From: Bacteriovoracaceae bacterium | GTDB taxonomy: Bacteria; Bdellovibrionota; Bacteriovoracia; Bacteriovoracales; Bacteriovoracaceae | Direction of reading: 5' to 3' | Length of the DNA: 64,000 bases | Assembly: GCA_048270185.1 (NCBI GenBank) | Contig: JBLWTJ010000001.1 | Coordinates: 864,001-928,000 of the forward strand | Part shown: positions 6,495 through 31,339 of the stretch, piece by piece | How positions within the stretch are numbered: the first letter of the stretch is position 1 | Layout: the number at the start of each line of letters is the position of its first letter | Notes under the pieces: model-generated | What the model was told of the DNA's origin: nothing | The model's input: the letters and a program-made list of their open reading frames with translations, nothing else | The model's database searches: none | Translations under genes and position numbers: made by a program

Positions 6495-7835
6495 ATGGCA
6501 GCGATTAAGCCACAAAATGCAAAAGGGACAAGAGATTTCGGTCCAATCGAATCAGCAAGAAGAAATTTTATTTTTGAGACGATCAAAGAACGCTTCCAGT
6601 CACATGGTTTCATGCCACTTGAAACTCCAGCAGTTGAAAATCTAAATGTTCTAACAGGTAAATACGGAGAGGAAGGAGATAAACTTCTTTTTCGCGTTCT
6701 AAACTCAGGTGACTTTCTAAAGAAAGTAAAACCACAAGACTTAGAAGAAAAAAACCTTGGGGCCGTCTCAAGTAAGATGTGTGATCGTGGGCTACGTTAT
6801 GATCTAACAATTCCATTTGCCCGTTTTGTTTGTGCCAACCTAAATGATCTGGCCCTGCCATTTAAGCGCTATCAAATCCAACCAGTATGGCGAGCTGACC
6901 GTCCTCAAAAAGGTCGCTACCGCGAATTCTACCAATGTGATGGTGACATCATTGGAACAGAATCTCTTCTTAGTGAAGTTTCACTTGTTGAAGTTTATCA
7001 CGATGTTTTCAATGACCTAAAAATCGACGGTGTTGAAATCGTCATTAATAATAGAAAAATCCTCCAAGGAATCGCAAGTGTTCTTGGCGTTAGCGACAAG
7101 CTAACGGATATGACAGTTGCCATTGATAAGCTCGATAAAATTGGAGCTGAAAAAGTTGGCGAAGAACTTCTTGGCCGTGGCTTTAGTGCCGATCAAGTTG
7201 CAAAGCTATCGACTCTTCTAACACTTGAAGGCGATTCAGATAAGAAGCTTGCGACAATTAAGTCATTCTTAGGTGAAGATGAAATCGGAAAACTTGGACT
7301 AGAAGAACTTGAATTTGTTCTATCAAATGTAAGTGAACTTGGAATTGAGAATTTAGTATTTGATCCTACTCTTGCAAGAGGCCTTGACTACTACACAGGT
7401 TGCATCTTTGAAGTAAAACTTGTGGACGGTTCAATGGGAAGCATCGGTGGCGGTGGACGCTATGATGATCTTACAAGTATGTTTGGCCAAAAAGAAAAGC
7501 TCTCGGGAGTTGGAATCTCTTTTGGTGCAGAAAGAATTTATGATGTCATGCTTGATCGTGGCCTCTTTGAAGATATTAGTGCCAGCGTTGATTATATGAT
7601 CATCAATATGAGTGATGAGGATCAAAAAGAATATCTTAAAATTGCTCGCAAGTTTAGAGCTCAAGGTCATTCAATTGAGATCTACCCTACTTCGGCAAAG
7701 ATGAAGAAGCAGATGACTTACGCTAATAAGCGTGGGGTTAAGAATGTGATCTTCTATGGGGAAGCTGAGAAAGAGAAAGGTGTTCTGCAAGTCAAGAACA
7801 TGGAATCTGGGGAACAATCAGAAATTCAAAAATAG
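6495..7835 (+). CDS. hisS: Histidine--tRNA ligase
   Basis: KGTRDF, LRYDLT, WRADRPQKGRYREFYQCD, RGLDYYTG, GGGRYD. Confidence 0.97.
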   Translation: MAAIKPQNAKGTRDFGPIESARRNFIFETIKERFQSHGFMPLETPAVENLNVLTGKYGEEGDKLLFRVLNSGDFLKKVKPQDLEEKNLGAVSSKMCDRGLRYDLTIPFARFVCANLNDLALPFKRYQIQPVWRADRPQKGRYREFYQCDGDIIGTESLLSEVSLVEVYHDVFNDLKIDGVEIVINNRKILQGIASVLGVSDKLTDMTVAIDKLDKIGAEKVGEELLGRGFSADQVAKLSTLLTLEGDSDKKLATIKSFLGEDEIGKLGLEELEFVLSNVSELGIENLVFDPTLARGLDYYTGCIFEVKLVDGSMGSIGGGGRYDDLTSMFGQKEKLSGVGISFGAERIYDVMLDRGLFEDISASVDYMIINMSDEDQKEYLKIARKFRAQGHSIEIYPTSAKMKKQMTYANKRGVKNVIFYGEAEKEKGVLQVKNMESGEQSEIQK

Positions 7836-7881: not shown

Positions 7882-7918
7882 ATAAAAAAAAGCCACTCTA
7901 AGAGTGGCCTTTTTATTT
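7882..7918. terminator. Bidirectional intrinsic terminator between hisS and histone gene
   Basis: A-tract, GCCACTCT-A-AGAGTGGC, then T-tract. Confidence 0.75.
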
Positions 7919-7940
7919 CTAACGAAATGTATTCGTTCGA

Positions 7941-8201
7941 TTATCCAAGGATATCGTATGGACGAATAGTCTTTCTACCGTTAGCTGTACATCTCTTTTG
8001 AGCTTGATCAACTAGCCAGTATACGTACTCGTTCATAGCTTCAAGAGCGTCTGAAGATACATTGTATCCTTTACCCTTAAGTGCTTCTTTAGTCTTAGAA
8101 CCAACTAGTAGCATTTCTTTTTTCTTAGATGCTGCTTTCTTAGTTGTTTTCTTAGCTGCCTTCTTTGGAGCTGCTTTTTTAGTAGCTTTTTTCTTTGCCA
8201 T
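7941..8201 (-). CDS. Bacterial histone (Bd0055-like histone fold) with Lys/Ala-rich N-terminal tail
   Basis: Residues 29-86 (EMLLVGSKTKEALKGKGYNVSSDALEAM...ANGRKTIRPYDI) match the LVxSKxK...N.S...GRKT...DI pattern of Bdellovibrio Bd0055; residues 2-28 are K/A/T/P/S only; SD GAGG upstream. Confidence 0.85.
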   Translation of the reverse strand: MAKKKATKKAAPKKAAKKTTKKAASKKKEMLLVGSKTKEALKGKGYNVSSDALEAMNEYVYWLVDQAQKRCTANGRKTIRPYDILG

Positions 8202-8391
8202 TTTAAACCTCTTGTTTAGTAGTTTTTAACGAAAAATATCTTATATTGTAATTTTAAGGACCTAGCTTAATGAACGTCAATAAAAAAAACGGATTGCCAC
8301 CTTTAATTGCCAAAAAAAGCCCCTAATCTCAACTAAATAAGTGGGTAAATCGGTCACCTTTGCAGCGATTTTGATCTTAAGGTAATCTTTC

Positions 8392-15533: not shown

Positions 15534-17330
15534 ATGTCAAACAATGAAAAAAAGAATTTCACACTCGATAATTTGATTGAGATTTTTACTGAAAACGACT
15601 GTATTGAGAAATGTTTATCTAAAATCTCGAAAGAAAAAAATGATGATACTGAAATAGACAAAGATGTGTTGTTAATCGAAGAAGTCTTAAGACTTGGCTT
15701 GGATGGAAAAAACGAAAAGGAACCATTTAAACCTTTCATGGAATATCAGGGCAAGAGAACATTGTCGTTGGAAGATATAAAGACAGAACAATATCAGGTA
15801 ATAGAAAACTTAATTGGTAAAATAAAAAGTCATCATGTCAATGCTAGACTAGCAGATGTCCTCTGGGCCGGATGCCAAGATTACCCAAAAGTAGAACTGG
15901 CACTAGAATCTTATCTTTCATACATAGAAGACTTTGTTAGCAGTGAAGAAAAAAGATCAAAGGCACTAATACGAGATGAATTAAAGAGATGTTCCTCTCT
16001 TCTGCGTTTAACTAAAGACAAAGATACTCTTAAAGAAAGATTGTCTAATATTTTCAAAATATTAATTAGTCCTAAAGACAAGGAGCCAAGTGACTTTACA
16101 AGATTTATCTATTTTAAGATTTACGCTTTTGCAAACCTTGAAGATGATAAGAATATTATTCAAATGTCAGAGAATTATGCAGATGAATCAAAAACTCAGA
16201 AGCACTTTAGAAAATATCGTGACTACTTAGATATATGTTTAAAGTTACACAAAAAAGCAAAAGACGTTGATAAAAGAGATCAGACCCTTAATCTTATTTG
16301 TGACTCATATTTCGATGAAATTAAAAGTATAAAAGAAGACGGGGGCAATGGCCTAATGTTAACCGAAGCATGCTCAAGAGCTTTGTACGAAAATATGATG
16401 GCACATAAAATAACGAGAAGTCGAAAAGAAGCAATTGATGATATACATGCAGAATTAAATAATGCCTCACTTAAATCACAAGATGAAATGAAGTCTTCTC
16501 CATTTGACATAGACCTTTCAAAACCAATGGAAGAAACATTTAAAGCAATTGAGAAGCTAGATACTATAAATGGTATATTGGCTTTAACTTATAAAACGAT
16601 TCCTCAAGAAGTTGAATATTATCAAAATCATGCAAAAGAAGCTGTAAAGGGTTCTCTGCGCCATTTGTTTTCGACAATACATTATGATGACAATGCGAGA
16701 ATAGTTGATAGAGATAATGGCCTCTCTTTTGAGAATGAAGATGAGAATGCTTCGATTTTACTCTCAGAAGCCTTATTTCTATTTAAAAACGGAGTCTTAA
16801 TAAAAGGAACTTGCATAGATCACGGCAGAAATACTCTCCTTCTTAGACATGACATCACTGAATATGATTTTGAAAGTTTTCTTACAAATAATCCTTTTAT
16901 ACCTCCAAACAGAATCTCCATAATCAGAAAAGCCTTATGGTATGGGTTTATTGGGAAATGGGAAGAATCAATGTATTTATTAGTCCCTCAATTTGAAAAC
17001 TGTTTTCGGCATTTCTTAGAAAATGTAGGTGTAATAGTTACTCTTATTGATGAAGATATAGTTCAACAAGAAAGAACTTTAAGCTCTCTGTTACATCTAC
17101 CTGAATTTAAAAAAGTATTTGGTGAAGCTCATCTCTTTCAAATTAAAGCTCTTTTGTCAGAAAATAAAGGTTTTAACTTCAGGAACAGGCTTTCACATGG
17201 ACTAATTGGAGATGATTTCTACGACTCATGTTCTTATTTCTCTCCATTTGTTTGGGGCTATTTCATTTACCTTAGCTATATGCTTAGGGAAACTTTCTAT
17301 GAAAAGCTCAACCAAGTCAAAGAAATCTAA
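15534..17330 (+). CDS. DUF4209 domain protein (C-terminal HEPN-like RxxxxH)
   Basis: LVPQFENCFR...TLSSLL...GFNFRNRLSHGL. Confidence 0.7.
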   Translation: MSNNEKKNFTLDNLIEIFTENDCIEKCLSKISKEKNDDTEIDKDVLLIEEVLRLGLDGKNEKEPFKPFMEYQGKRTLSLEDIKTEQYQVIENLIGKIKSHHVNARLADVLWAGCQDYPKVELALESYLSYIEDFVSSEEKRSKALIRDELKRCSSLLRLTKDKDTLKERLSNIFKILISPKDKEPSDFTRFIYFKIYAFANLEDDKNIIQMSENYADESKTQKHFRKYRDYLDICLKLHKKAKDVDKRDQTLNLICDSYFDEIKSIKEDGGNGLMLTEACSRALYENMMAHKITRSRKEAIDDIHAELNNASLKSQDEMKSSPFDIDLSKPMEETFKAIEKLDTINGILALTYKTIPQEVEYYQNHAKEAVKGSLRHLFSTIHYDDNARIVDRDNGLSFENEDENASILLSEALFLFKNGVLIKGTCIDHGRNTLLLRHDITEYDFESFLTNNPFIPPNRISIIRKALWYGFIGKWEESMYLLVPQFENCFRHFLENVGVIVTLIDEDIVQQERTLSSLLHLPEFKKVFGEAHLFQIKALLSENKGFNFRNRLSHGLIGDDFYDSCSYFSPFVWGYFIYLSYMLRETFYEKLNQVKEI

Positions 17331-18175
17331 TCACAGCTATTAGAACAGCAGGGCTTATCTTTACCTTCTACTTTCTTCTGTGGTCTTGAAAGTTTAATTA
17401 TTGTAAATCCACCTTTAATAACAATAAAAGATACAAATGCTCCAATAACAAGGTCTGGAATATTGCTGTTTAGATAATAAACGAGGACACCTGATACAAT
17501 AACACCAGTATTTACAATGACATCATTTGCTGAAAATATCCAACTAGCCTTCATGTGAACCTCACCATCTTTATGTTTGTGTATCAAAACTAAGCATAAA
17601 ACATTAGCAATTAGGGCAATTATTGAAATAATGATCATGTAATTGGATAGAGGTTCACTTCCTGTGTAAAACTTTCGACCTACTTCAACAAGACATAAAA
17701 GGCCTAACGATATTTGCATGATACCACTAAGAAAGGCTGTTCTATTTTTTGTAACAATGCTTCTTCCGACAGCATACAAGCTGATACCATACACAAATGA
17801 GTCGGCTAACATATCCAATCCATCTGCTATTAATCCTGTAGATTCTGCATAAATCCCAACAAATATCTCAACGATGAACATTGTAAAATTTATCGCTAAC
17901 AAATATTTAAGGGTTCTTGCTTCAACACTAGGCCCAATATCAGGTATGTCTTCTTCAGAAATACTTTCAGTTGAAACAAGTTCGCCAGGTAATGATACAT
18001 TCTTTAATTCATTCAAAATCATATCACTAGTTATACTATGGTAAAAAGTAACAACTCTTTTATCTAAATCAAATTCTGCCTTTATATCCGTGCTAATCTT
18101 CTCAATAAGACTTTCTATTATTTTAACTTCAGACGGGCAGTCCATCTTTTGAATTTTAACAATACTCTTTTTCAT
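17327..18175 (-). CDS. Cation transporter (HMA-like N-terminus + cation efflux domain)
   Basis: KMDCPSE; STGLIADGLDMLAD; HMKASWIFSANDV. Confidence 0.85.
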   Translation of the reverse strand: MKKSIVKIQKMDCPSEVKIIESLIEKISTDIKAEFDLDKRVVTFYHSITSDMILNELKNVSLPGELVSTESISEEDIPDIGPSVEARTLKYLLAINFTMFIVEIFVGIYAESTGLIADGLDMLADSFVYGISLYAVGRSIVTKNRTAFLSGIMQISLGLLCLVEVGRKFYTGSEPLSNYMIIISIIALIANVLCLVLIHKHKDGEVHMKASWIFSANDVIVNTGVIVSGVLVYYLNSNIPDLVIGAFVSFIVIKGGFTIIKLSRPQKKVEGKDKPCCSNSCD

Positions 18176-18206
18176 TTTTTTCCTTTTCTTATAACTCACT
18201 TAGATA

Positions 18207-18545
18207 TTATTGTAGCATCTTCTGTAAGTCATCTCGAACTTCCATTTTTTTAAACGGTGGAACATTACTTCCTCCTGTATTACCTATTGGTAGAATACCA
18301 AACATAGAACCTAATACTCCTGTAGGAATACGAAATAATTGACCTATGATTTCTTTTAAATCTTTTTGCAAGAAACCAATTTTAAGCATATAGATATGAG
18401 TAATCGTGTGAGGAATTATATACCTTTGCCCCAAGACATGTGCGTCCTCAAGAAAAGAGAAAGCTTCCTCATATTGCTTTAAACTAATTAATCCCTTGGC
18501 CTTTGCAAGTTTTAGGTAAAAATTCTTTTTTAGTTTCGTATTCAT
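18207..18545 (-). CDS. DUF3703 domain protein
   Basis: LEDAHVLGQ...HT.TH..ML...EIIGQ..R...P.GNTGGSNVPPFK. Confidence 0.8.
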   Translation of the reverse strand: MNTKLKKNFYLKLAKAKGLISLKQYEEAFSFLEDAHVLGQRYIIPHTITHIYMLKIGFLQKDLKEIIGQLFRIPTGVLGSMFGILPIGNTGGSNVPPFKKMEVRDDLQKMLQ

Positions 18546-18558
18546 CAACAAAGTTCCA

Positions 18559-19326
18559 TTATTTATTATTAAAAGAAATTGAGTTAATATCTTCAATACT
18601 ACACAATGTTCTTAAATCACCGTTAGATTGTGTTTTTTTCTTTCTAAGCTTTGAAATTGTATTATTCATAATATGTCGAACTAATAATTTAAAAAGCACT
18701 TTTTTTAGACCTTTAGGATTTGTTCCATACTTCTCGTAAAACTCATCAGGTGAATCAAATATACCTAAATCTTTTACAATACCTTCTTTTTGAATATAGG
18801 TATTATTATTCCCACTCCACTCTACCTGAGGAGACTGGAAGTCATCACTAGCAACACCATATCCACAAAGTGTTTTAGGATTACTTGTGAAATATGACTT
18901 TAAAGAACTTAAATATTCTTTATCTAATATAAAACCTTCGAGGTTATACCAACTCCCATTGAAATTAACCTCAATCCAGCTATGAAAAATTTCTTTTGGA
19001 GTTAACCAATAAAAGATTCCTGTAACAGCTCCATATTGTAGTCTTTTATCAATCGTGAAACCATGAAAACGAGCTTCAATTCCGGCACCTCGAAGTAGTG
19101 CAAGTAAAAGGTTTGATTTTGTATTACATTGGCCATACCCATCATTCAAAACCTTTGAGGCAGGAATGTCATCACTCTCGTTATAACCAAATTTAATTTC
19201 ATCCCTAACGAACAAATAGCAAGCGTTTATTATCTCTTGTTGCTCAGTAAGACCGTTGGTTATCTTATCTATTACCCTTTTTATCTCATAGTGGTTAAAG
19301 TTTAAAATTTTTGTTTCATTCATCAT
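18559..19326 (-). CDS. Transglutaminase-like cysteine protease domain protein
   Basis: GYGQCNTKS, HSWIEV, W.NLEG. Confidence 0.85.
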   Translation of the reverse strand: MMNETKILNFNHYEIKRVIDKITNGLTEQQEIINACYLFVRDEIKFGYNESDDIPASKVLNDGYGQCNTKSNLLLALLRGAGIEARFHGFTIDKRLQYGAVTGIFYWLTPKEIFHSWIEVNFNGSWYNLEGFILDKEYLSSLKSYFTSNPKTLCGYGVASDDFQSPQVEWSGNNNTYIQKEGIVKDLGIFDSPDEFYEKYGTNPKGLKKVLFKLLVRHIMNNTISKLRKKKTQSNGDLRTLCSIEDINSISFNNK

Positions 19327-19367
19327 TGGACCTCTCTAGTTAATGTTTATTAAGTATAGAGCAAGCA

Positions 19368-20066
19368 TTAATTATGATCTTTTATAAACTGGCTATTCTT
19401 AAGGATTTCAGAAGGTGAAAGACCAAATGATGCCTTAATAACCTTTGATAAGTGTGTGGAATCACTGAAACCTGCTCCCAAGGCAATATCAGTTAATTTC
19501 ATGTTTTTATTGCTAGCAAAGGATGATATTGCTCTTCTAAGCTTCTTCCAAAGAATATACTTTCTAAAGGGTACTCCTACTTGTTCTTTAAACAAATGTA
19601 ACATTCTGCTTTCAGATAAGGCCATTTCTTTTGATATTTCACTCAGTCGAATTTCTTCTAGGAATTCAGCACTATCTATCATCTCTTTTACCTTAATAAT
19701 TCTAGAGTCTAAATTTTTACCACTTCCGAGTCCAAGGTGCTTAAGTAGAGGTTCAACATCTCCTATTTCAGTTGGAAAAGTATCGAGATTACGAAGCTTT
19801 GATCTCAATTCAGATAAATTAAACAAAGACTCATTATCTATTAAAATAGATAGGAAGTGAGAACAGCTCCCTAGAAAATTATGTGTTTCCTGAGAAGGAA
19901 TAAATACAACCTTTGAACTAATTAGCTCTTCCCCAACCTTAACTTCGAAAGACTCATCGTTTAACGAAAATGTTAATTGATGAGCAAGGTGAGAGTGTTT
20001 TTCGGTATTAAGAGAATCAGATATAATTACAGCGTAAAATTCAAATAGATAAATTTGATTATTCAT
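19368..20066 (-). CDS. AraC family transcriptional regulator
   Basis: HSHLAHQ cupin; LSESRMLHLFKEQVG...GFSDSTHL...FGLSPS. Confidence 0.9.
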   Translation of the reverse strand: MNNQIYLFEFYAVIISDSLNTEKHSHLAHQLTFSLNDESFEVKVGEELISSKVVFIPSQETHNFLGSCSHFLSILIDNESLFNLSELRSKLRNLDTFPTEIGDVEPLLKHLGLGSGKNLDSRIIKVKEMIDSAEFLEEIRLSEISKEMALSESRMLHLFKEQVGVPFRKYILWKKLRRAISSFASNKNMKLTDIALGAGFSDSTHLSKVIKASFGLSPSEILKNSQFIKDHN

Positions 20067-20934
20067 TTCTCTCACACTTCGCTTCAAACTCAATTGTTGA
20101 ATATGTAACATTATAGGTCTTTAAAATCTCTTTTACTTTAATTTTCAATGAATCAACAGTCCCAATCTTTGTATCTTCTGGAACGAGGACATGAAACCGT
20201 AAATAGTAAGTCGAATCATCAATTGACCATCCTTTAACAGCGTGTATATCGTAGACGAGATCAAGATCCATTATTTCTTTTTTTAACTGCTCAAACTCAA
20301 GCTCATCAGGGAATTTTTGGAGAAAAATTAACCCAACTTTTATTAAATTTTTATAAACCCCTCTAAGTATTACTAAAGAAATCAAAATCGAAAGGATAGA
20401 ATCCAGTATATACCAAGGTTTAAATAGTAAAATCACACTCACAATTAATACAGCAACCCATCCAAGTAAATCCTCTAAGAGGTGAAACATGACCATTTTC
20501 GTATTCATGCCATCATCTTTAGACAACCTAAAAGCAGCAAATGAGTTAACTGCAATCCCTAGAATTGCTAGACCTAACATTCCTTCGGGAGATACTTTTT
20601 CTGGCGACATTATTCTTTGAGAAGCTTCATAAATCACGAAAATACTTCCCAATAATAAAATCATTCCATTAATTAGAGCTGAGAGTATAGAAAAGCGTCG
20701 ATAGCCAAATGTAAACTTCTTATCCGCATCTTTATGGCTTAATTTTTCAGCAAAGTATGAAAAGAGTAGAGCAAGACTATCGCCAAAGTCATGTAAAGCA
20801 TCGGAGTAAATAGCAACACTATTGGTTAAGTAGCCACCGATTAACTCTATAACTGCAAAACCAGCATTAAGAAAAAAGGCAACAAGTATGTTCTTGCTGC
20901 CATGATGATGTGAGTGATTATGCGTTCCTGACAT
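20059..20934 (-). CDS. czcD: CDF family cation efflux transporter (CzcD-like)
   Basis: SDALHDFGD, FTFGYRR, HLLED motifs; His-rich N-terminus. Confidence 0.85.
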   Translation of the reverse strand: MSGTHNHSHHHGSKNILVAFFLNAGFAVIELIGGYLTNSVAIYSDALHDFGDSLALLFSYFAEKLSHKDADKKFTFGYRRFSILSALINGMILLLGSIFVIYEASQRIMSPEKVSPEGMLGLAILGIAVNSFAAFRLSKDDGMNTKMVMFHLLEDLLGWVAVLIVSVILLFKPWYILDSILSILISLVILRGVYKNLIKVGLIFLQKFPDELEFEQLKKEIMDLDLVYDIHAVKGWSIDDSTYYLRFHVLVPEDTKIGTVDSLKIKVKEILKTYNVTYSTIEFEAKCERNE

Positions 20935-20946
20935 TATTCATCCTAT

Positions 20947-21228
20947 TTAGCGTCTTCCACCGCGATCTACCCAATTCTGATTTGCCTTTTTGATATTGGT
21001 TTCAAGGTCGTTCTTAAAGTCATTAAGTTTTTCACTAGTCGAAAAGTAATAAGTTTTTCCTCCGTGCTCAAACTTATATTCTACTTTGCCTTTAGTTTTT
21101 AAATCTCCATGAGCTACGCTATAGGCACATTGTTTTTCATACTTATGGTGATGATGCTCAGTTTTATTATGATGATGAGCACATGATGCTAAAAACATAG
21201 TTAGTAAGACTGCGATAAGGTATTTCAT
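20947..21228 (-). CDS. His-rich YHS-domain lipoprotein
   Basis: Lipobox LASC; HHH...HHHH; EHGGKTYYFSTSE. Confidence 0.7.
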   Translation of the reverse strand: MKYLIAVLLTMFLASCAHHHNKTEHHHHKYEKQCAYSVAHGDLKTKGKVEYKFEHGGKTYYFSTSEKLNDFKNDLETNIKKANQNWVDRGGRR

Positions 21229-24200
21229 TATAATTCTCCTTTAAATAGATTTGGTTGCATTTGTTTTATAAATAATCTGTATAAACTTGGTAATACTATC
21301 AATGTTAGTGCTGTCGCAGATAAGATTCCTCCAACAACAACAGTTGCAAGTGGTTTCTGTACTTCAGCACCAAGTCCAGTTGAAAACATCATTGGTAAAA
21401 ATCCAAAGATATCGGTTAGGGCAGTCATAAGAACAGGTCTAAGTCTTGTCATGGCCCCTTCTCTAACGACATCGTCTGGTGTTTTCCCATCTAAAATTAG
21501 TCTGTTAAAATATGTCACAAGGACAACCCCATTTAATATACTAATTCCACAAAGTGCTATAAAGCCAACTCCGGCTGATATACTAAAAGGCATATTCATA
21601 ACATTTAATGCAATAACACCTCCGATTAAGGCCATTGGCGCACATGCAAATATTAACACCACCTGAGAGAAGTTTTTAAATGCAGCATATAGCATTGCAA
21701 GAATTATCAAGAGGGCCATTGGAACAAGTACGCCTAATCTTTCTTTGGCACTTTGAAGGTTTTTAAAACTACCTCCCCATTCGATGTAATACCCCTCTGG
21801 AAGCTTTACTTTTTCTTCAACCATTTTCTTAGCTTTATTTACAAAGCTTTCAATATCTCTAACTTCAGGATTAATAAGTACAGCAATACGCCTTTGCGAG
21901 TTTTCTCGACCTACAGCCGAGAAGGTCTCTACAAAATCAATATCTGCGACTTGTTCAATGGGAACAGTATGACCTTCAGCAATACCAACAGGTAATTTTC
22001 TAACTGTCATTATGTCTTTTCGTTCTTCCTCAGAAAGCCTAGTTACAATAGGAAACTTGCGTACTCCATCATAGACATGTCCTACTTCTCGACCTCCAAT
22101 CGCCGTGTTAATTGCATCTAGTACTGGACGTGCAGTAACTCCCAATTGAGCTAGTTCATCCATTTTGGGTGTATATTGAAGTAGAGGTGATTTTCCTTTA
22201 GATTCAGACTCAGCCTCTCCCGCTCCCTCAATACTACCAACAATTTCAGCAACCTCTTTGGAGTATGCTATTAGTTTATCCAAATCTTCACCGAATACTT
22301 TTGCTGAAACATCTGCACGAGTTCCTTCTAAAAGCTCATTAAAACGTAATTCGACTGGTTGAGAAACTAGCATAACTTGACCAGGGACATGTAAATCTAA
22401 TTTTTCCTTTACAGCCTTCATCAAACTCTTTTTGTCCGTAATAGAACTATCTTTCGGCCATTCTTCTTTGTTGTTAAGCATCACATATGAGTCTGAGATA
22501 TTCACACCCATCGGATCTGTTGCTACCTCCGCAGCTCCAGTTCTCGCAAAAACATTTTTAACCTGTGGAAAATCCAAAACAATTTTCTCTGAAAGTCTCT
22601 GTAATTTTACCGAGTTCTCAATACTAATATTAGCAGGACGAATAAATTGTAACGCAAAATCACCTTCATCAAGTTGAGGAATAAATTCTGCACCTAATCT
22701 TGAGAATAAAAATACCCCCACGACTATTGAAGCTATTCCAATACCAAGAACAAACTTTTTTGCCCTTAATGCCATACCTAATGTAGGACTAAATGCCTTT
22801 TCAGCGAGACTCATTAAGAATGGTTTTTTATCTCTTGTTTTTCCACTTAAGAATGTTGCGGCCAATGCAGGAACAACTGTAAAAGAAAGGAGAAGCGCTG
22901 ATGCTAAGGCCATTATAAATGTTGTAGCCATAGGGCCAAACATTTTACCTTCAACACCAGTTAGGGCAAAAAGTGGAATAAAAACTACAATAACAATTAA
23001 TTCACCAAACCCAGCAGCAGACCGAATTTCAATTGCTGAGTCTATGACTACTTGCTTAACCTCGGCTCTGGTCATTTCTCTTCCAAGCATCTTTCCTTTA
23101 CTTTGAAGTCGATGTACACAGTTTTCTATAACAATAACAGCTCCATCAATAATAATCCCAAAATCAAGAGCACCCAAACTCATTAAGTTACCAGATACAT
23201 TTTGCCACTTCATTAAGATAAAGGTCATAAGAAGTGATACAGGAATCATAAGAGATGTAATAATTGCTGCTCTTATATTACCAACAAGTAAAAGTAAGAA
23301 TAGTATTACAAGTCCTGCCCCCATTAGTAGGTTATGCTCTACTGTCCCAAGAGTAGCATCTACCATATTTGATCGATCATAAAGCACCTTGAGTTTTACC
23401 CAAGGAGGTAGATCCTTTTTAATATCATCAAGTTTTACAGACACTCTTTGAGCTACAGCTCTAGAGTTTTCCCCAAGCAGCATAAAAGCTGTTCCAATAA
23501 TAGACTCTTCGCCATTTACAGTTGCAGCTCCTGTTCTAATCTCTTTATCGTATTTTACTTGGGAAATATCCTTAATCTTTATGACTTGATATGAAGAAAG
23601 TCTTTTTACAACGACTGACTCAATATCTTTAATATTATTTAATAACCCAACTCCTCTAACGAGAAGTTGCTCTCCTGTCTGCTGAATATAACCGCCACCA
23701 ACATTTAGATTAGTACGTTCAATCGCAGACTCAATATCATCAAAATGAAGACCATATTTGGCCATTTCCTGAATATTTGGCTGGATAAAAAACTGTTTTT
23801 CATATCCACCAATAGTATTAACTTCGGTGACTCCTTTAACGGTTAGAAGTCTTGGCTTAATAAACCAATCTTGAAGAGATCTCAAGTCCATTAGTTGAAT
23901 CAATCTTTTTTCAGGGTCTGTTTCAGGAACCTTAGCTTCAATTGAGTAATGGAAAATTTCTCCAAGTCCAGTACTAATAGGGCCCATTTCTGGAACAACT
24001 CCATCTGGTAGCTCAATATTTTGAAGCTTTTCAGAAGCAAGTTGCCTGGCCCTAAAAATATCCGTCTCTTCTTTAAAGATAACAGTTACTTGAGAAATAC
24101 CATATCGAGATATTGAACGAATTGTTTCAACGCCAGGAATTCCATTCATAGAATATTCAATCGGAAAAGTTACCATTCTCTCGACTTCTTCTGGAACTAG

Positions 24201-24365
24201 GCCTTTCACCTGTGTGTTTATTTGAACTTGTGTATTGGTGATATCAGGAACAGCATCAATAGATAACTCCTGAAAAGACTTCATACCAAATACAATCAGT
24301 AGCAATGTTGCCATAAAGACAAACATTCGATTATTTACGGAGAATTCAATAACTTTATTAATCAT
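21228..24365 (-). CDS. czcA: CusA/CzcA family heavy-metal RND efflux transporter
   Basis: IDAVPDITNTQVQI, NLMSLGALDFGIIIDG, RLRPVLMTAL. Confidence 0.93.
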   Translation of the reverse strand: MINKVIEFSVNNRMFVFMATLLLIVFGMKSFQELSIDAVPDITNTQVQINTQVKGLVPEEVERMVTFPIEYSMNGIPGVETIRSISRYGISQVTVIFKEETDIFRARQLASEKLQNIELPDGVVPEMGPISTGLGEIFHYSIEAKVPETDPEKRLIQLMDLRSLQDWFIKPRLLTVKGVTEVNTIGGYEKQFFIQPNIQEMAKYGLHFDDIESAIERTNLNVGGGYIQQTGEQLLVRGVGLLNNIKDIESVVVKRLSSYQVIKIKDISQVKYDKEIRTGAATVNGEESIIGTAFMLLGENSRAVAQRVSVKLDDIKKDLPPWVKLKVLYDRSNMVDATLGTVEHNLLMGAGLVILFLLLLVGNIRAAIITSLMIPVSLLMTFILMKWQNVSGNLMSLGALDFGIIIDGAVIVIENCVHRLQSKGKMLGREMTRAEVKQVVIDSAIEIRSAAGFGELIVIVVFIPLFALTGVEGKMFGPMATTFIMALASALLLSFTVVPALAATFLSGKTRDKKPFLMSLAEKAFSPTLGMALRAKKFVLGIGIASIVVGVFLFSRLGAEFIPQLDEGDFALQFIRPANISIENSVKLQRLSEKIVLDFPQVKNVFARTGAAEVATDPMGVNISDSYVMLNNKEEWPKDSSITDKKSLMKAVKEKLDLHVPGQVMLVSQPVELRFNELLEGTRADVSAKVFGEDLDKLIAYSKEVAEIVGSIEGAGEAESESKGKSPLLQYTPKMDELAQLGVTARPVLDAINTAIGGREVGHVYDGVRKFPIVTRLSEEERKDIMTVRKLPVGIAEGHTVPIEQVADIDFVETFSAVGRENSQRRIAVLINPEVRDIESFVNKAKKMVEEKVKLPEGYYIEWGGSFKNLQSAKERLGVLVPMALLIILAMLYAAFKNFSQVVLIFACAPMALIGGVIALNVMNMPFSISAGVGFIALCGISILNGVVLVTYFNRLILDGKTPDDVVREGAMTRLRPVLMTALTDIFGFLPMMFSTGLGAEVQKPLATVVVGGILSATALTLIVLPSLYRLFIKQMQPNLFKGEL

Positions 24366-24373
24366 GTTAATTC

Positions 24374-25048
24374 CTAGTGTGAGTGACCGTACTCTGATTT
24401 ATCTGTTGAATAAACATCTGTTACTCGTAAAAGACCAACGCCATTTACAACAATCTGATCTCCAAAATCAACACCTTTAACTTCTACCTGATAGCCATCA
24501 GAAAGCTCTTTTGTAATTTTCGCTGGCATAAACTTAAAAAATCCTGCTCTAAACCTATACACACCTTTTTTATTTTTGGATGCCACTAAAGTCTTCTTAG
24601 AAATCTTAAAAGAAGAACCATCTACTGTATTAAGTTTTAGTTTCAAAGTCTTAATGGCTTCTTTTGAAAGTTTGAACCCTTTAATTTCATCTACTTCCTC
24701 TATAGCTTTTCCTTTTCCAATGGCCTTTCCTCCACCGTGTCCTTCATGAGAACCATGACCTTCGTGTGAACCATGATCATGCCCATCTTCTTCTTTATGT
24801 TTATCATGCTCATGACCGTCATCTTCATTGTGGCCTTTATGCCCATGATCATCGTGGCCGGCATGAGAATCTTTCTTCTTTTTTTTCTTGTGATTATGAC
24901 CATCCCCATCACTGTGGTCATGAGATTCCTCTTTAGAATGCTTTTCTTTTTTTTCATGAGAACTGTGATCATGTCCATCTTCTGCAAAAGAACTAAATCC
25001 TAGAAGGGATGTAACTATAATTCCTGATAATATTAATTTACGATTCAT
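24374..25048 (-). CDS. His-rich, truncated CzcB-like periplasmic adaptor
   Basis: Signal peptide, about 85-aa His/acidic tract, then MFP-like C-terminus (VEVKGVDFGDQIVVNGVGLL). Confidence 0.6.
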   Translation of the reverse strand: MNRKLILSGIIVTSLLGFSSFAEDGHDHSSHEKKEKHSKEESHDHSDGDGHNHKKKKKKDSHAGHDDHGHKGHNEDDGHEHDKHKEEDGHDHGSHEGHGSHEGHGGGKAIGKGKAIEEVDEIKGFKLSKEAIKTLKLKLNTVDGSSFKISKKTLVASKNKKGVYRFRAGFFKFMPAKITKELSDGYQVEVKGVDFGDQIVVNGVGLLRVTDVYSTDKSEYGHSH

Positions 25049-25609
25049 TTATATCTCCTGTTTATAATATTTACTACATTCTGATTCATCTAAGTGAGTG
25101 CTTCCAAATAAACCCTTTAAGTTATTAAGAATTTCATAAGAGTTCTCAAGATAATTTGAAAATGATTGTGGACACACGTCAAAATATCCTTCAATGCATT
25201 TATCTCTAATCTCTTCAACCATTTCTTTCTCAACGAGAGTTGCTGAGCAAAACTCTCCGATTTCCATAACTGATCTTATCTCCCTAACTAATTGTTTTCT
25301 CTTTCTTCGTGTGCCGATATTATTCTTTATATAATCATTAAGTTCAGTAATCTTTAGTGAGAAATCATTAATAACAACAAGATAATCTGCATCAAATTTA
25401 TTAAACAGTTCCTCGTCCATTATTTTTAGATTAATATTCTCAAAATCTAAAATACCTTTGACTTTAGTCGCTTCAGCGGTAGATGAGTTTACAGTTTTAC
25501 ATATTCGGATTTTACTCCCGGGCCTTTTCTTGCATACTCGCTCACTTGCATATACATTTTGAATAAGCAAAATACTGAAAATAAAAAACGCTATATTTCT
25601 AGTTTTCAT
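25049..25609 (-). CDS. Secreted hypothetical protein
   Basis: Signal peptide, 6 Cys, within the efflux operon. Confidence 0.7.
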   Translation of the reverse strand: MKTRNIAFFIFSILLIQNVYASERVCKKRPGSKIRICKTVNSSTAEATKVKGILDFENINLKIMDEELFNKFDADYLVVINDFSLKITELNDYIKNNIGTRRKRKQLVREIRSVMEIGEFCSATLVEKEMVEEIRDKCIEGYFDVCPQSFSNYLENSYEILNNLKGLFGSTHLDESECSKYYKQEI

Positions 25610-25613
25610 AACT

Positions 25614-26858
25614 CTATTCCTCTATATTTAAAATTGGACCACTACTGTAATCACCACTAAAAGTGATCCTTTTGAGTTTCTCTACTAAATCTGAAAATCG
25701 AAACTGATATGAGAGTAGTAATATTTTAGATGCATATAGATTGTCTAAAATCTCGACCATTTCCATAACGTTAAGGGTTCCACCAATCGCGATGTGGCTC
25801 ATCATTGCTTCATAATTAGAATTAGCTAATTCAATTCTCTCTTGAGTAATAGTGTAGTTATGAATTAAAGAGTTATATTCTTTAACAAGAACATTTACTT
25901 GTCTCTTAATGATTTCTATCGTTCCTTTGAGCTGTGTCTTTAATATTCTTCCCTCAGATTTAGAGATTCGTATGCTAGCTCCCATACCAAATCCCAATCC
26001 ATCCTGAATTGGTATATGATCAAAAACTCCATTTCCTTCACCCATTGAGAATGTAGATGTTCCTAAAATACTAAAGTTAATTTGTCCTCTCACTTTAGAA
26101 AGGGCATTAATCAAGTGTTCATACTGAACGACTTCAGGAGATGCTTCTATCGCTTTAAATATAATTTTAGAAAAATCAATTTTAGAAGCTCCCTCTAGCT
26201 TCGGAAGTATTGGAGGTTGAATCACAACATCTTCTTCATTATTAATTCCTGTTAGAAACTGTAGTTCTTTTATCTCTGAGTAAACTAAATTTTCAAGATT
26301 TCGTGAGTCCTCTACCAGTGAAAGATATCTATCCCTTACTAAGTTGTAAGCGAATAAGTTTCCATTTCCAAAAATATTTCTGGTCTTTGCAATTTCCATT
26401 ATTTCTTTATATTTTTTTTGCTTTTGCAGAACAAGATTAGCAAAAACTTCGTCACGATAAACACTTACAAATAGTAATTTTGCTGTATTAACTTCATTGG
26501 CCCAAAGTGCTCTATATTGTTCTTTTCTAGCTTTATAAAGATGCTTGGATTGAGCGACTTTAAACCAATTTGCTGGAACTAAAAAAGGTGCAAAGTCTTG
26601 GATAATATCTCCAATGGCCAGAGGGTCAACAAAAACCGCTGGAAGCTTAAGTAGATTCCAAATATTTAACTTTGGAAGCAAATTAGCACGGGAAAACTTT
26701 ATGTTTTCTTTTTTTTGGTAAACTCGCTCAGCATTTTCTATTACAAGAAAGTTGTCGTTAGAGACCTTCTTAGCAACATCTTCTAGCTTTAGTTCTACTG
26801 GGCCTGCAAAGGAAAATGAAGAAGATATGAGTATTGATATCAGTAATAAGTTCTTCAT
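25614..26858 (-). CDS. TolC-like outer membrane efflux protein
   Basis: LKLEDV...RANLLPKLN; two-repeat OEP pattern. Confidence 0.65.
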   Translation of the reverse strand: MKNLLLISILISSSFSFAGPVELKLEDVAKKVSNDNFLVIENAERVYQKKENIKFSRANLLPKLNIWNLLKLPAVFVDPLAIGDIIQDFAPFLVPANWFKVAQSKHLYKARKEQYRALWANEVNTAKLLFVSVYRDEVFANLVLQKQKKYKEIMEIAKTRNIFGNGNLFAYNLVRDRYLSLVEDSRNLENLVYSEIKELQFLTGINNEEDVVIQPPILPKLEGASKIDFSKIIFKAIEASPEVVQYEHLINALSKVRGQINFSILGTSTFSMGEGNGVFDHIPIQDGLGFGMGASIRISKSEGRILKTQLKGTIEIIKRQVNVLVKEYNSLIHNYTITQERIELANSNYEAMMSHIAIGGTLNVMEMVEILDNLYASKILLLSYQFRFSDLVEKLKRITFSGDYSSGPILNIEE

Positions 26859-26860
26859 AA

Positions 26861-27514
26861 TTAAATCCTTGTAAGAGAAAAGTTATAGATCATAGCATTG
26901 GTACTAGAGCGCAATTTCCCCTTAAACTCTTGAATGTAGTTTACGAATCCGTCTTTTATTTGATTTGCCAAGGCATGGCTCTGTGCCATAACGTCCTGAT
27001 CCTCTACATTTTGTCCGTCATCAGGTGTATCGGACAGAAAAAGCTGATAAGTATTTGAACACCCCTCAGAAATTAAGTTCATAATACCTTTCTTTAAGTC
27101 AGGCTTAATATTTTGTAAAACACAACCAACGGCTGATAATTGACTATTAGGGTTCCATTGCATTATTTGAACGTTTAAATTTAAATTTTGAAGTTCATAC
27201 TCTAGCTCTGCAAGTGTCCTAGTTCGATCAACATCATAATCTGGAATAGTTGGTGTAATTAGCAAACGGATCATGTAAGTAGATTCTTTTACGGAAAACT
27301 GTCCTTCAAACTCTCCTTCAACTGCATTGATAAAAGTTCTTCTTTTATCTAAGTCAACTTCAAGTTTTTCTGCCCACTCCTGTAGGTTTTGGTTTTGAGC
27401 ATTAATTTCTTCTTTTGTCTGTATCCCTGTTTGTTCTTTCAATCCCTCTTCGCCATCGCTACATGCGATCAGTGAAAGTAACATAAATGCCATAAGTATT
27501 ATTTTTGACTTCAT
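26861..27514 (-). CDS. Hypothetical lipoprotein
   Basis: Lipobox LIAC. Confidence 0.7.
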   Translation of the reverse strand: MKSKIILMAFMLLSLIACSDGEEGLKEQTGIQTKEEINAQNQNLQEWAEKLEVDLDKRRTFINAVEGEFEGQFSVKESTYMIRLLITPTIPDYDVDRTRTLAELEYELQNLNLNVQIMQWNPNSQLSAVGCVLQNIKPDLKKGIMNLISEGCSNTYQLFLSDTPDDGQNVEDQDVMAQSHALANQIKDGFVNYIQEFKGKLRSSTNAMIYNFSLTRI

Positions 27515-27534
27515 AATATCCCCCTTAGTAGGTT

Positions 27535-28755
27535 TTAAAGTTTTTTATTCTCAATTTCCCCATTTAACTTATATATATTCCAAAGAGCTTCCGTTGCTCC
27601 ATTTTCAAATTCAAACCTTGTGTTAAAAAATTCTATTAATTGTCTGTGTGACTCAATTACAAGTGATGTAGAAATAATTCCTCTCTTAAATAGAGATTCA
27701 ATTTTTCTATGCTTTTTTTCTAATTTTTCTTTATTTGCAATGGTTTTTAGTGAATCTTTATATTGGTTGTACTTTTGCACCCACGATTGAATATCTAGCT
27801 TACTTTCTTGCTTTATGTTCCTCAAGTTCAGGCTTGCCGCTAAAACATCTTTAGCTGCCTTTGCTCTACCACCACCATTAATATTCAGTATTGGTAAGTC
27901 CATTGTTAGCGCAATACCGACAGTGTTTGTTTGGCTGACATTAAGCTTTTCATATTCATAAGTTGGCCCAATCTGAAGATTTGGGTAACTATTAGATTTT
28001 TCTAAATCTAAGTTCGATTTTGCCAACTCTAAAGCAAGTGATGCTATTTTAAGCTTTGAGTAGTTCTCAACTTTCATATCACTATTAAAACTCTCACTTA
28101 AATTCACAGTAAAAGGAAGAGCGTTTCGTGGGATAATGCAGTTTTCTCCCATAAAGAAAGACAAATGTGTTGTTAGATTCATTTTTTCAGAATTAAGCTG
28201 CGAGATTTTAAGCTTATAATCATTTACAGCTAATTCAAGAGTTTCACCTTCTACCTGTTGTTCAGGAGAAAGAGACTTTCTTTTCTTGATAGTTCTTAGA
28301 ATTTTATTGAATGCATCTAAAGACTCTTTATAAAGAGGAATCAATTCATATACTTGCCTCAAGCGGTGAAGTTTAATAACTGTATCAATTATAGTTTGCT
28401 GGTTTTCAAATTCTGCTACGGCCATGCCAGTCTTAAATGTATTTCTTGCAACATTAACCCTTGAGTCACGTTTTCCGCCTAGCTCAAAAGTGTGCTTTAG
28501 AGAAACAGAGGTACGATAAATATTTCCCTCAACTGAGTCACCAACAGTACTCTCGGCATCTAACTCAGGATTAGGTCTTTGTCCTGCTACTTCTATAGTA
28601 GATTCGAGAGCCTTTCCCTTTGCCTCATTAAAAGCGATACTTGGATGGTTTTTCTTAACTAGCTCTAAGATATCATTTGAACTTTTAAGGTTACATTTTG
28701 CATAAGTATTAAATGTACAAATACTAATAAAGATGACTAATAAACTATTCTTCAT
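27535..28755 (-). CDS. czcC: TolC/CzcC family outer membrane factor
   Basis: AGQRPNPEL, FELGGKR..R, YPNLQIG, LPILN.N.G. Confidence 0.8.
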   Translation of the reverse strand: MKNSLLVIFISICTFNTYAKCNLKSSNDILELVKKNHPSIAFNEAKGKALESTIEVAGQRPNPELDAESTVGDSVEGNIYRTSVSLKHTFELGGKRDSRVNVARNTFKTGMAVAEFENQQTIIDTVIKLHRLRQVYELIPLYKESLDAFNKILRTIKKRKSLSPEQQVEGETLELAVNDYKLKISQLNSEKMNLTTHLSFFMGENCIIPRNALPFTVNLSESFNSDMKVENYSKLKIASLALELAKSNLDLEKSNSYPNLQIGPTYEYEKLNVSQTNTVGIALTMDLPILNINGGGRAKAAKDVLAASLNLRNIKQESKLDIQSWVQKYNQYKDSLKTIANKEKLEKKHRKIESLFKRGIISTSLVIESHRQLIEFFNTRFEFENGATEALWNIYKLNGEIENKKL

Positions 28756-29016
28756 TCCCATTTTTCCTTTTTTTATATGAGAGGGGCGAGAGATCTCTCC
28801 CACTCTAACTTCTTAAAGTAACCAAAATCATGTTTGTGCTTATTGCTCAAAGAGTTAACTCTATTATCTGACAATGCCTCTAGAGGACTGGCTCCTACAG
28901 GCAATGCTGTTATCAAAGCTAAATTGTTATTAAATTTCATTAAACTTCACCTAATTAGTTAGTAATTATTCCAAGTAAGCATACGCATAGATGCTTATAA
29001 AGAATCTAAAATCTAA

Positions 29017-29370
29017 TTAGGAGAACATCGGAGGCTTTAAAGCCGGATCAAGAAATAGGGTTTTATAGTGGTGGTTGTAATACCAAAGGACTTTATTATT
29101 AATACCTGTAGGACTTTTTAGTGAAGCCTGACTCTGAGCTGGGGCAATATTATGTAAACCACTACAATGGTGAGAACAGTGCTCCGTGTGGTCGCCACAG
29201 TCATTCTCTTGGCAATCTGCACTTACAATCTCAGACGCAGTTGTAAAAGAGCCTACACTAGAAATTTCAGACTCAACACTTGAAGTAAGTTCATGAATAC
29301 CATTTGACTCAGCAAATGAGCTGAATAAAAATGAAATCAAAATGAATAGTGAAAAGAATCTTCCAATCAT
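29017..29370 (-). CDS. CzcI-like Cys/His-rich periplasmic protein
   Basis: Signal peptide; DCGDHTEHCSHHCSGLH; C-terminal LKPP; first gene of the czc-like operon. Confidence 0.55.
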   Translation of the reverse strand: MIGRFFSLFILISFLFSSFAESNGIHELTSSVESEISSVGSFTTASEIVSADCQENDCGDHTEHCSHHCSGLHNIAPAQSQASLKSPTGINNKVLWYYNHHYKTLFLDPALKPPMFS

Positions 29371-29452
29371 ATATACATAATTATCAACGTGTATCTTGTT
29401 TAGTCAAGTAATAATTTCACTGTAAATATATTAAGAAAATTCTCTGGTTACA

Positions 29453-29515
29453 GTTAGTCAAGCTTCCTCCTTCAAAGCCTTTCGGCATGGGTGAAAGGAG
29501 GAGAGCATGACTAAC
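29453..29515 (+). promoter_or_regulatory. 5' leader hairpin sequestering SD and AUG
   Basis: GTTAGTCAAGCTTCCTCCTTCA pairs with TGAAAGGAGGAGAGCATGACTAAC. Confidence 0.7.
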
Positions 29516-29665
29516 AAAGACAACAAAATTGAATTTGAGATTAATCTAAAATTTAAAATGAGGGATTACAGATTAAAGTTTGCAACTAAGAGAGCTTGGG
29601 TCGTTTCATTTATACTAATCATTCTAAAGATAATATTTAAAACCTACAACGACTCCTCACCATAG
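29507..29665 (+). CDS. 52-aa basic single-TM peptide (type I toxin-like)
   Basis: MTNKDNKIEFEINLKFKMRDYRLKFATKRAWVVSFILIILKIIFKTYNDSSP*; strong AAGGAGG SD. Confidence 0.55.
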   Translation: MTNKDNKIEFEINLKFKMRDYRLKFATKRAWVVSFILIILKIIFKTYNDSSP

Positions 29666-29668
29666 TTA

Positions 29669-30007
29669 TTAACTTCTAGCTGCCCACATAGTCTTAATCA
29701 CAGAATCTTCAACTAAATATGTAATTAAAAGCGATCTATTTTCGCCAGTAGATTTTTTAGTTTTTCTTTCGACTGTGGTTACATAATCACCAAGAGTAAT
29801 AACCTCTAATACTTCAACTTCCTCGAAGTCCTCAGTTCCAAAAGAAGATTTTAGATGACCCCTTAGAATGTCTTTACCTTTAAAAAGAGATTCATTATCT
29901 GGAAGGAGTAATACTTCAATCTGGTCGTCGCAATACGCAAGACACTTTTCAATGTCTTGATTGTTGTACTCCTCTATCTGTTTTAGGACTATTTCTTTAA
30001 CATTCAC
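29669..30007 (-). CDS. SnoaL/NTF2-like protein
   Basis: IVLKQIEEYNNQDIEK...GKDILR...LGDYV..E; GTG start lies inside the fpg-like repeat. Confidence 0.7.
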   Translation of the reverse strand: MNVKEIVLKQIEEYNNQDIEKCLAYCDDQIEVLLLPDNESLFKGKDILRGHLKSSFGTEDFEEVEVLEVITLGDYVTTVERKTKKSTGENRSLLITYLVEDSVIKTMWAARS

Positions 30008-30025
30008 TTTGCCGGAATTACCAGA
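30005..30025 (+). repeat. fpg/mutM-start-like direct repeat, right copy
   Basis: CACTTTGCCGGAATTACCAGA; frame reads (M)PELPELETIITQFQQHPAEIFPQTIHNN*. Confidence 0.7.
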
Positions 30026-30154
30026 ATTAGAAACTATTATAACCCAATTTCAACAACATCCAGCGGAAATATTTCCACAAACAATTCATAACAACTAGTA
30101 ATCACTTTAAAAACCGCATAGGTTTGACGAATTTTCGTCAAAAGGGAGTCCTTT

Positions 30155-31339
30155 ATGAAAAAGCAATATCGTAAATATAGCGATGAAATAAAAGAAATCA
30201 TTATACGAACGGGAAACCCAAATGCGTTTCCAGAATTGAATATACCAAGATCAACTGCGCTATATTGGATTCGTCATTCAAAGAAGAAAGTTTCTATCGG
30301 AGACAGACGAATAAACTCAGCTAATAAAAATGAGGTCGAATATTTGAAAAACAAGCTCGAGAAAGAAAGGGCAAAAGTATGCTTTTTGAAAGAAGTAAAT
30401 ACTCTCCTATCAGATGAAGTCTCTATAAAGAAATCAAAGAAAATATGCGCTGTCATAAGCAAGTACAGTCAATACCATTCAGCTACTATTCTTTGCCATT
30501 TAGCAAAGATCGATCACTCAAAATACATGCGATATAAGTTTAATACATCAACAAACCGCTCACTCTATTTACGAAGATCGAAACTTTCAAGCAAAGAACT
30601 GCGAATAATAGAAAGACTGTCAAAATCAAAAAGTCTTTCTCACCTTCCTGCAAAACGTCTTCAACTTTATGCCTACAGAAAAGGATTACTTTACTGTAGC
30701 TACGGAACCTGGAGAAAGTATATTAAAATATTTAGCGAAAGAAGAAATAAGAAGAAATATAATAAAAGTAAAAATAGAATAGGACTTAGAGCAACACGTC
30801 CAAATGATATTTGGCATATCGACATAACTGAATTTAAGTCAAAACCACATGGGAAAATTTATCTTCAGTCAGTAATTGATAACTATTCTCGAAAAATAGT
30901 GTCCTGGAGAATAAGTCATACAAAGGACAAAAGTGTAACTCTTAAAACTTTAAAATGCGTTCTGAAAGTAGAAACTCCTAAAATGATTGTTTTTGATGGT
31001 GGAAAAGAAAACACGGCCATAGACGTGAGCAATTTGCTACAAATGAAAAATATTAAAAAATTCATTTGTAAGAAAGACATTCGGTTTTCAAACTCCATGG
31101 TCGAATCCTTCTTTAATATTCTAAAGTCTAATTATGTGAACAAGTATCGGTGCTATAACTTTGTGGAACTCTACAAAACAATTAAAGAAGCGATAAGAAA
31201 ATATCACCTAGCCCCCATTCCATGTCATCATGGTGCAAATGCTCTAGAAATTTATAACAGAAATATAAATACACTATTTCTAAAAGAAGATCTGAGATAT
31301 AAAATTATGACAAGCTCTCTGGACCGTTATCAAAAATGA
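30155..31339 (+). mobile_element. DDE (rve) transposase/integrase, IS3/IS481-like
   Basis: PNDIWHIDIT, VIDNYSRKIVSW, FDGGKEN, NSMVESFF catalytic motifs; upstream palindrome TTTGACGAA-TT-TTCGTCAAA (30123-30142). Confidence 0.85.

Follow-up and report, generated by a model that had tools for sequence, protein, structure and literature searches.

Within a 64,000-nucleotide (nt) stretch of contig JBLWTJ010000001.1 (the window) from a Bacteriovoracaceae bacterium, the minus strand carries a small gene for a face-to-face-type (FtF, alpha3) histone. The frame from 8201 to 7941 runs without interruption, and its translation gives a histone core behind a lysine-rich N-terminal tail. The locus has the following features.

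7941..8201, minus strand: FtF-type (alpha3) histone gene; 86 amino acids (aa), pI ~10.1
7944..8117, minus strand: histone-fold core, residues 29-86, from alignment to 9QT0 with the residue roles of HLp
8118..8201, minus strand: N-terminal tail, residues 1-28, predicted to be disordered; degenerate direct repeats in its DNA
8207..8213, minus strand: Shine-Dalgarno (SD) sequence AAGAGGT, preceding Met1
8251..8280, minus strand: sigma70-type promoter-like site TTGACG-18-TAAAAT; conserved, with a presumed promoter function
7884..7914, both strands: intrinsic-terminator-like bidirectional hairpin, separating the histone gene from the convergent hisS
6495..7835, plus strand: hisS (histidyl-tRNA synthetase), the convergent neighbour, given for context only

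The histone core and its FtF assignment

AlphaFold2 (AF2) predicts three helices at residues 34-43, 50-73 and 81-85, and the core of the predicted monomer superposes on HLp of Leptospira perolatii (9QT0-9QT2; PMC12701072), the rmsd (root-mean-square deviation) being 1.2 Å over 56 residues. The histone fold proposed in an earlier sequence-only reading is therefore supported by prediction. The best match is HLp with an E value of 6e-12, compared with 1.5e-3 for Bd0055 (HBb) of Bdellovibrio bacteriovorus, and the alignment with HLp is ungapped over 61 residues. Bd0055, which that reading took as its reference, gives way to the FtF tetramer HLp as the closest solved relative (45-46% identity, versus 32-33% for HBb).

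The short alpha2 and truncated alpha3 (3-4 residues) of the FtF class are found, although the predicted alpha3 at 81-85 is one turn and about one residue over the definition. R70 and N74 stand where the FtF profile has its tetramer residues R48 and N52 (R49 and N53 in HLp). R70, N74 and R76 correspond to tetramer-interface residues in HLp, and S35, K36, K38 and K42 to DNA-facing ones. The conserved lysine of alpha1 is K38, which lines up with K17 of HLp and K11 of HTkC and is probably equivalent to K16 of the profile. The RxTxxxxD motif is R76-T78-D83, and all 100 rows of alignment A2 keep N74, R76, T78 and D83. Among 80 orthologous loci (the best 80 of 187 genome loci, a set that overlaps the protein set below and is not additive with it), N74 is kept in all 80, and position 70 is Arg in 46 and Lys in 34. 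The 58-aa core has a net charge of only +2.

Bacterial dimer histones lack the residues equivalent to R70 and N74, according to the accessible text of Schwab 2024 (PMC11390915), whereas both are present here. The protein is a stand-alone, tailed bacterial histone, as the sequence-only reading had it, but not of the dimeric Bd0055 type. HBb (8FVX, 8CMP), from the same phylum, shares the alpha3-truncated singlet fold (rmsd 1.2-1.4 Å), but it is a dimer without R48/N52 and has no basic tail. HLp shares the tetramer residues and the RD clamp, and five of nine DNA-contact residues are identical. On the other hand, HLp has a 7-residue non-basic N-terminus and ends at D+1, while the present protein has a +14 tail and ends at D+3. 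HLp is also the sole histone in a cell without HU, while the genome of the present protein also encodes HU/IHF and a second histone.

An ortholog from Halobacteriovorax marinus SJ, E1WYC3 (CBW25971.1), has a core 91% identical, a Lys-rich tail of 26 aa, and Lys replacing Arg at position 70; its genome contains an intact ZZ histone. E1WYC3 is classed as face-to-face in Schwab 2024 and, per the peer-review file, is named in a supplementary figure legend. The portion of that paper at hand also reports that FtF histones occur in Bacteriovoracia, and that bacterial FtF tails, which it calls H3-like, are common, unconserved and mostly positive.

In the subfamily aligned in A1, alpha2 contains the aromatic stretch YVYW, the C-terminal end is 2-5 residues longer than that of canonical FtF histones, and Lys often takes the place of the tetramer Arg. 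Judged from these sequence features, the subfamily interface may be altered.

The N-terminal tail

Counting Met1, the tail contains 14 Lys, 8 Ala, 3 Thr, 1 Pro and 1 Ser with no acidic residue, for a net charge of +14. The 27 residues with 14 Lys described in the sequence-only reading follow directly after Met1. Its quoted C-terminal sequence GRKTIRPYDI is also there, but the protein runs two residues further (...YDILG). Residues 1-24 have a pLDDT (predicted local distance difference test) score below 50 in the AF2 model, and the tail is underlain by a repeat family (D1) with three copies of 39 nt in 8122-8199.

The tail is very likely translated. Pairing with the anti-SD sequence, which was assumed since no 3′ end of the 16S turned up in the assembly, is -6.1 to -8.7 kcal/mol (mean -7.3) at the tail start in 30 of 30 loci. 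At the Met30-equivalent start, -4 kcal/mol is reached in none of the 30 (mean -0.9). These loci, all kin, are our own and the 29 best class-level matches, and in 4 of them the best among several upstream starts was chosen. A start at Met30 (EMLLV), which would have left the tail unmade, is thus not where the strong SD lies.

Tail presence, which the sequence-only reading had suggested surveying, was counted in two sets. From 498 protein homologs the best 120 were taken, the named ones being from Halobacteriovorax, Bacteriovorax and Bacteriovoracaceae, and 119 tails were measured. They range from 3 to 46 aa with a median of 19, and 87 of 119 are at least 12 aa. In the 80 genome loci, N-terminal length is 0-42 aa with a median of 9; it is at least 12 in 38 and at most 9 in 41. 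On a nearly constant core, neither tail sequence nor length is conserved among the homologs. Composition is kept, with a Lys fraction of 0.49 ± 0.08 and with Asp and Glu absent from 80 of 81 long tails. The core is identical at six loci, whose tails measure 27, 28 or 36 aa, and all own-genus loci examined keep a tail of 19-42 aa. Of the distant representatives (150 listed of 237 found), 109 are at most 112 aa long, and 42 of these bear an extension of 12 aa or more whose net charge is at least +4, indicating that tails are common across the family.

The gene is found in 12 of 12 same-genus genomes. Of 238 class-level genomes, 151 match, by hand count 106 with a best E value below 1e-14 and 45 only weakly; of seven weak matches fetched, six are ZZ-type histones and one is a ZZ-less relative. 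Two large genera of the family (g4 and g57) gave weak ZZ-type matches only, a strong FtF match not being found with this query. No viral copy of the histone was confirmed. Nine loci in records titled Candidatus Omnitrophota belong to the same subfamily (69-84% identity, short tails), the core tree being too weak for inferring transfer.

Some Bacteriovoracaceae have two FtF paralogs (loci L125-L132 and L135). In one genome (G076; L131 and L132), one paralog has a 26-aa tail and a long C-terminal end, and the other a 5-aa N-terminal end and an HLp-like end; by sequence they look like a variant-like tailed/tailless pair. The second histone of our own genome (G000:C3:261492-261755, plus strand; 87 aa from the first ATG) clusters with ZZ-type histones (support 100). 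It keeps the ZZ-type linker motif without the ZZ zinc finger, and its codon bias is median. Its orthologs are in Hocher 2023 Table S1 (PMC10627809), and no remark on ZZ loss was seen in the text available from that source.

What kind of tail is it?

The tail had been called eukaryote-like, which is right for its charge and predicted disorder but not for conserved sequence, conserved length or core-histone motifs. ARTK, GRG and ARKS are motifs of core-histone tails; the first two occur in none of the 119 homolog tails and the third in 2. The full-length alpha2/alpha3 nucleosomal fold of eukaryotic core histones is absent, as are a conserved tail sequence and length with fixed modification sites, the length varying from 3 to 46 aa.

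It had also been likened to the K/A/P-rich tails of linker histone H1 and mycobacterial HupB, and here the repeats agree while the rest does not. Like HupB, Streptomyces HupS and the H1 C-terminal domain, the protein joins a low-complexity basic K/A/P/T tract containing KAAK to a DNA-binding domain. It differs in that its tract is short at 28 aa and sits N-terminal to a histone fold, the only folded part, with no Pfam match to an HU or winged-helix domain. The S/T-P-x-K site is found in 0 of 119 homolog tails, while KAAK is in 40 and PAKK in 12. These two motifs are those given for HupB-type lysine-repeat tails in the consulted part of PMC5676037.

Fourteen other open reading frames (ORFs) of the genome have similar K/A/T tracts, including TopA, a GyrB-type subunit, RecQ and IF2; several lack a Pfam match, and some of the tracts align to the tail with 16-21 identities over 23-33 residues. 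Since such tracts sit on 14 ORFs, the tail is best read as the usual basic low-complexity tract of the lineage, not as a eukaryotic loan.

The tract of TopA (G000:C1:1138703-1141240, minus strand) is a lysine repeat of ~65 residues placed N-terminally instead of C-terminally. A stand-alone ORF at G000:C1:1220173-1220661 (minus strand; ~147 aa from the probable start) consists almost entirely of K/A/T/V repeats and has no Pfam or NCBIfam match, and two further proteins (L143 and L145) have repeat N-termini of more than 100 residues. All three we take to be H1/Hc2-like by composition.

Proposed working

We consider, with a probability of about 0.72, that this FtF (alpha3) histone of a Halobacteriovorax-type predator is likely abundant and is predicted to form HLp-like ring tetramers that would wrap ~60 bp of DNA, with the 28-residue Lys/Ala tail, predicted to be disordered, likely adding a non-specific electrostatic grip on DNA. 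The ring would arise from homodimers meeting face to face, and ~60 bp of DNA would wrap around it as in HLp, for which wrapping of ~60 bp is reported (PMC12701072, as far as accessible). Four flexible tails (+56 per tetramer) would hold flanking or neighbouring DNA, raising affinity and compaction. They may act like a built-in linker-histone tail or like the lysine-repeat domain of HupB/HupS; in HupB the tail is required for nucleoid binding (PMC5676037, available text). Tail length likely shifts by slippage of short repeats and would tune affinity through bulk charge, with no residue-specific code. The product is likely very abundant, and nucleoid compaction by the tailed histone is plausible by analogy with HLp.

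Several observations weigh against this picture. First, three HU/IHF genes are present in the genome, unlike in Leptospira, and the main organiser is therefore not necessarily the histone. Second, the strong codon bias of the gene comes from comparison with a reference set of only 12 motif-picked ORFs, including duplicates and one probable wrong pick. Third, the C-terminus extends 2-5 residues beyond that of HLp in 77 of 80 loci, and Lys replaces R70 in the 34 loci counted above. In the accessible text of the HTkC preprint, it is argued that a C-terminal extension would disrupt the Arg-carboxylate bridge. The published multimer interface predicted template modelling (ipTM) scores for E1WYC3 are moderate (0.66, 0.70 and 0.64, oligomer states unlabelled in the material at hand). 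Finally, the long tail is dispensable in relatives, as 41 of 80 orthologous loci have at most 9 residues before the core, and tracts like it also occur on phosphorylase-family and zinc-protease-family proteins, which have no DNA role.

Alternative explanations

We conceived that the tail could be a regulated switch, with acetylation or methylation of its lysines, reversed by a sirtuin or HDAC-family enzyme, loosening and tightening the nucleoid between attack and growth phases. Such a switch is compatible with the tetramer-and-grip picture, but is unlikely on balance. The predicted disordered tail offers 14 lysines, and the genome has 17 GNAT-family matches, one SIR2 gene and one HDAC-family gene. 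Streptomyces HupS, which has a lysine-repeat tail, undergoes acetylation and is under the control of the sirtuin CobB1, as reported in the available text of PMC11229371, so regulation of this sort is feasible. However, these enzyme families are general: among 14 control genomes, GNAT matches occur in 14, SIR2 matches in 10 and HDAC-family matches in 9. None of the genes adjoins the histone gene. A SET domain was not found in the genome (95.9% complete), and neither the length of the tail nor any site in it is conserved. A ZZ domain, the candidate reader, was found neither in our own genome nor in any same-genus genome (0 of 12), all of which have the histone; the accessible part of Schwab 2024 both floats and doubts the ZZ domain as a tail reader. 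For modification of tail lysines in vivo, our literature search found no proteomics. The variable tail length, together with the similar tracts on 14 ORFs, favours a non-specific DNA grip over a modification code.

A more ambitious version would be a bacterial chromatin in Halobacteriovorax with a built-in regulated linker. Here FtF tetramers would wrap DNA, and four H1-like tails per tetramer, their lengths tuned from species to species and their acetylation reversible, would switch the nucleoid between a hyper-compact attack phase and a growth phase. Tailed and tailless FtF paralogs, in relatives with both, would be histone variants, and histone regulation through tails would have arisen in bacteria independently of Asgard archaea and eukaryotes. 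This combination looks quite improbable.

Another alternative sees the tail as a low-complexity accretion that is close to neutral, tolerated but unneeded, and that came about through repeat slippage in a lineage prone to adding K/A/T tracts to many proteins. The tracts on other ORFs, some lacking a nucleic-acid role, speak for it, as do the near-absence of a tail at about half of the orthologous loci and the interspersion of long and short tails on a core tree that is poorly resolved. Yet the composition is tightly held (Lys ~0.5, with acidic residues almost absent), and the codons are mixed (AAA/AAG and GCA/GCT) rather than those of a pure DNA repeat. Moreover, all own-genus loci examined keep their tails, which cost one third of a likely very abundant protein. 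Neutral accretion has accordingly a small probability in our view.

Only a slight chance is left to a dimer that would bend DNA like HBb/Bd0055, or to an altered oligomer, on account of a C-terminus two residues past that of HLp, with the tail offsetting the lost wrapping surface. The C-terminal extension and the Arg-to-Lys change at position 70 fit this alternative, and monomer fold scores tie for HLp and HBb. In the HTkC preprint, so far as it is accessible, R45A acts as a bending dimer, but Lys is noted to occur at that position. Further against a dimer, R70 and the invariant N74 are both present, and E1WYC3, which has an equally long end and Lys there, is classed as FtF from predicted multimers in the consulted text.

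Translation from Met30, always or partly, giving a tailless protein or two isoforms, is very improbable: all 38 rows of the close alignment A1 have Met30, but it is probably structural since another orthologous group has Val at the position and HLp has Thr, no locus of the 30 has an SD there while all have a strong one at the tail start, and tail indels preserve the frame, including indels of 27 and 3 nt in a relative's contig from one RNA library that covers tail and core (a weak hint).

Gene signals and neighbours

The sequence-only reading of a stand-alone gene with its own SD and terminator was borne out, with the SD at 8213-8207 and a terminator hairpin at 7892-7908. The hairpin has a U-run on either strand, and its gene-strand fold of -22.2 kcal/mol has a z score of -5.8, with 0 of 200 shuffles as good. 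Sigma70-like sites in the region are not in excess over chance (two found, versus a mean of 4.5 in shuffles). Of 30 related loci, however, 21 have a 10-of-12 sigma70 match placed 30-49 nt upstream of the start, mostly as TTGAC(G/T)-18-TANAAT. The histone gene would probably be transcribed alone and highly expressed.

A smaller second hairpin (7918-7938) lies between the stop codon and the terminator, and similar sequence is retained in own-genus loci. hisS adjoins the histone gene in 19 of 110 overlapping loci, chiefly of our own genus and close kin. Elsewhere in the window, 17327-31339 resembles a metal-resistance island: it contains two cation-efflux genes, an RND pump together with its outer-membrane factor, and an integrase/transposase of the rve type, and is followed by several ORFs without Pfam match.

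Relation to published histones and significance

Tailed histones of this kind are already in print. The Halobacteriovorax/Bacteriovorax singlets AYF45080.1, EPZ50939.1 and POB15291.1 in Hocher 2023 Table S1 (PMC10627809) have an identical 58-aa core and K/A/T/P tails of 27, 36 and 36 aa, differing in tail length and wording only, and the table has further tailed orthologs. The main text of that survey, in the part available, describes most bacterial singlets as having no tails, and no discussion of these tails was seen in it. Among other sources, each consulted in part, the Bacteriovorax chromatin paper (PMC11789641) treats another histone, the Asgard preprint (10.64898/2026.07.02.735847) covers archaeal tails, and the characterised FtF histones HLp and HTkC have no long basic tails. 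No experiment on a bacterial FtF tail was found in a literature search that covered few subscription papers.

Because near-identical tailed proteins are in published surveys, the novelty entertained for a tailed bacterial histone is unsupported; the present protein is an ordinary example of a known family of lysine-tailed FtF bacterial histones. As a discovery it is minor, the protein family, the tail and the identical-core orthologs all being published. Its value is rather as a test system, since in culturable Halobacteriovorax species one identical core carries tails of 27, 28 and 36 residues, which make a natural series. Should the tail prove to be modified and regulatory, it would represent an independent origin of histone-tail control.
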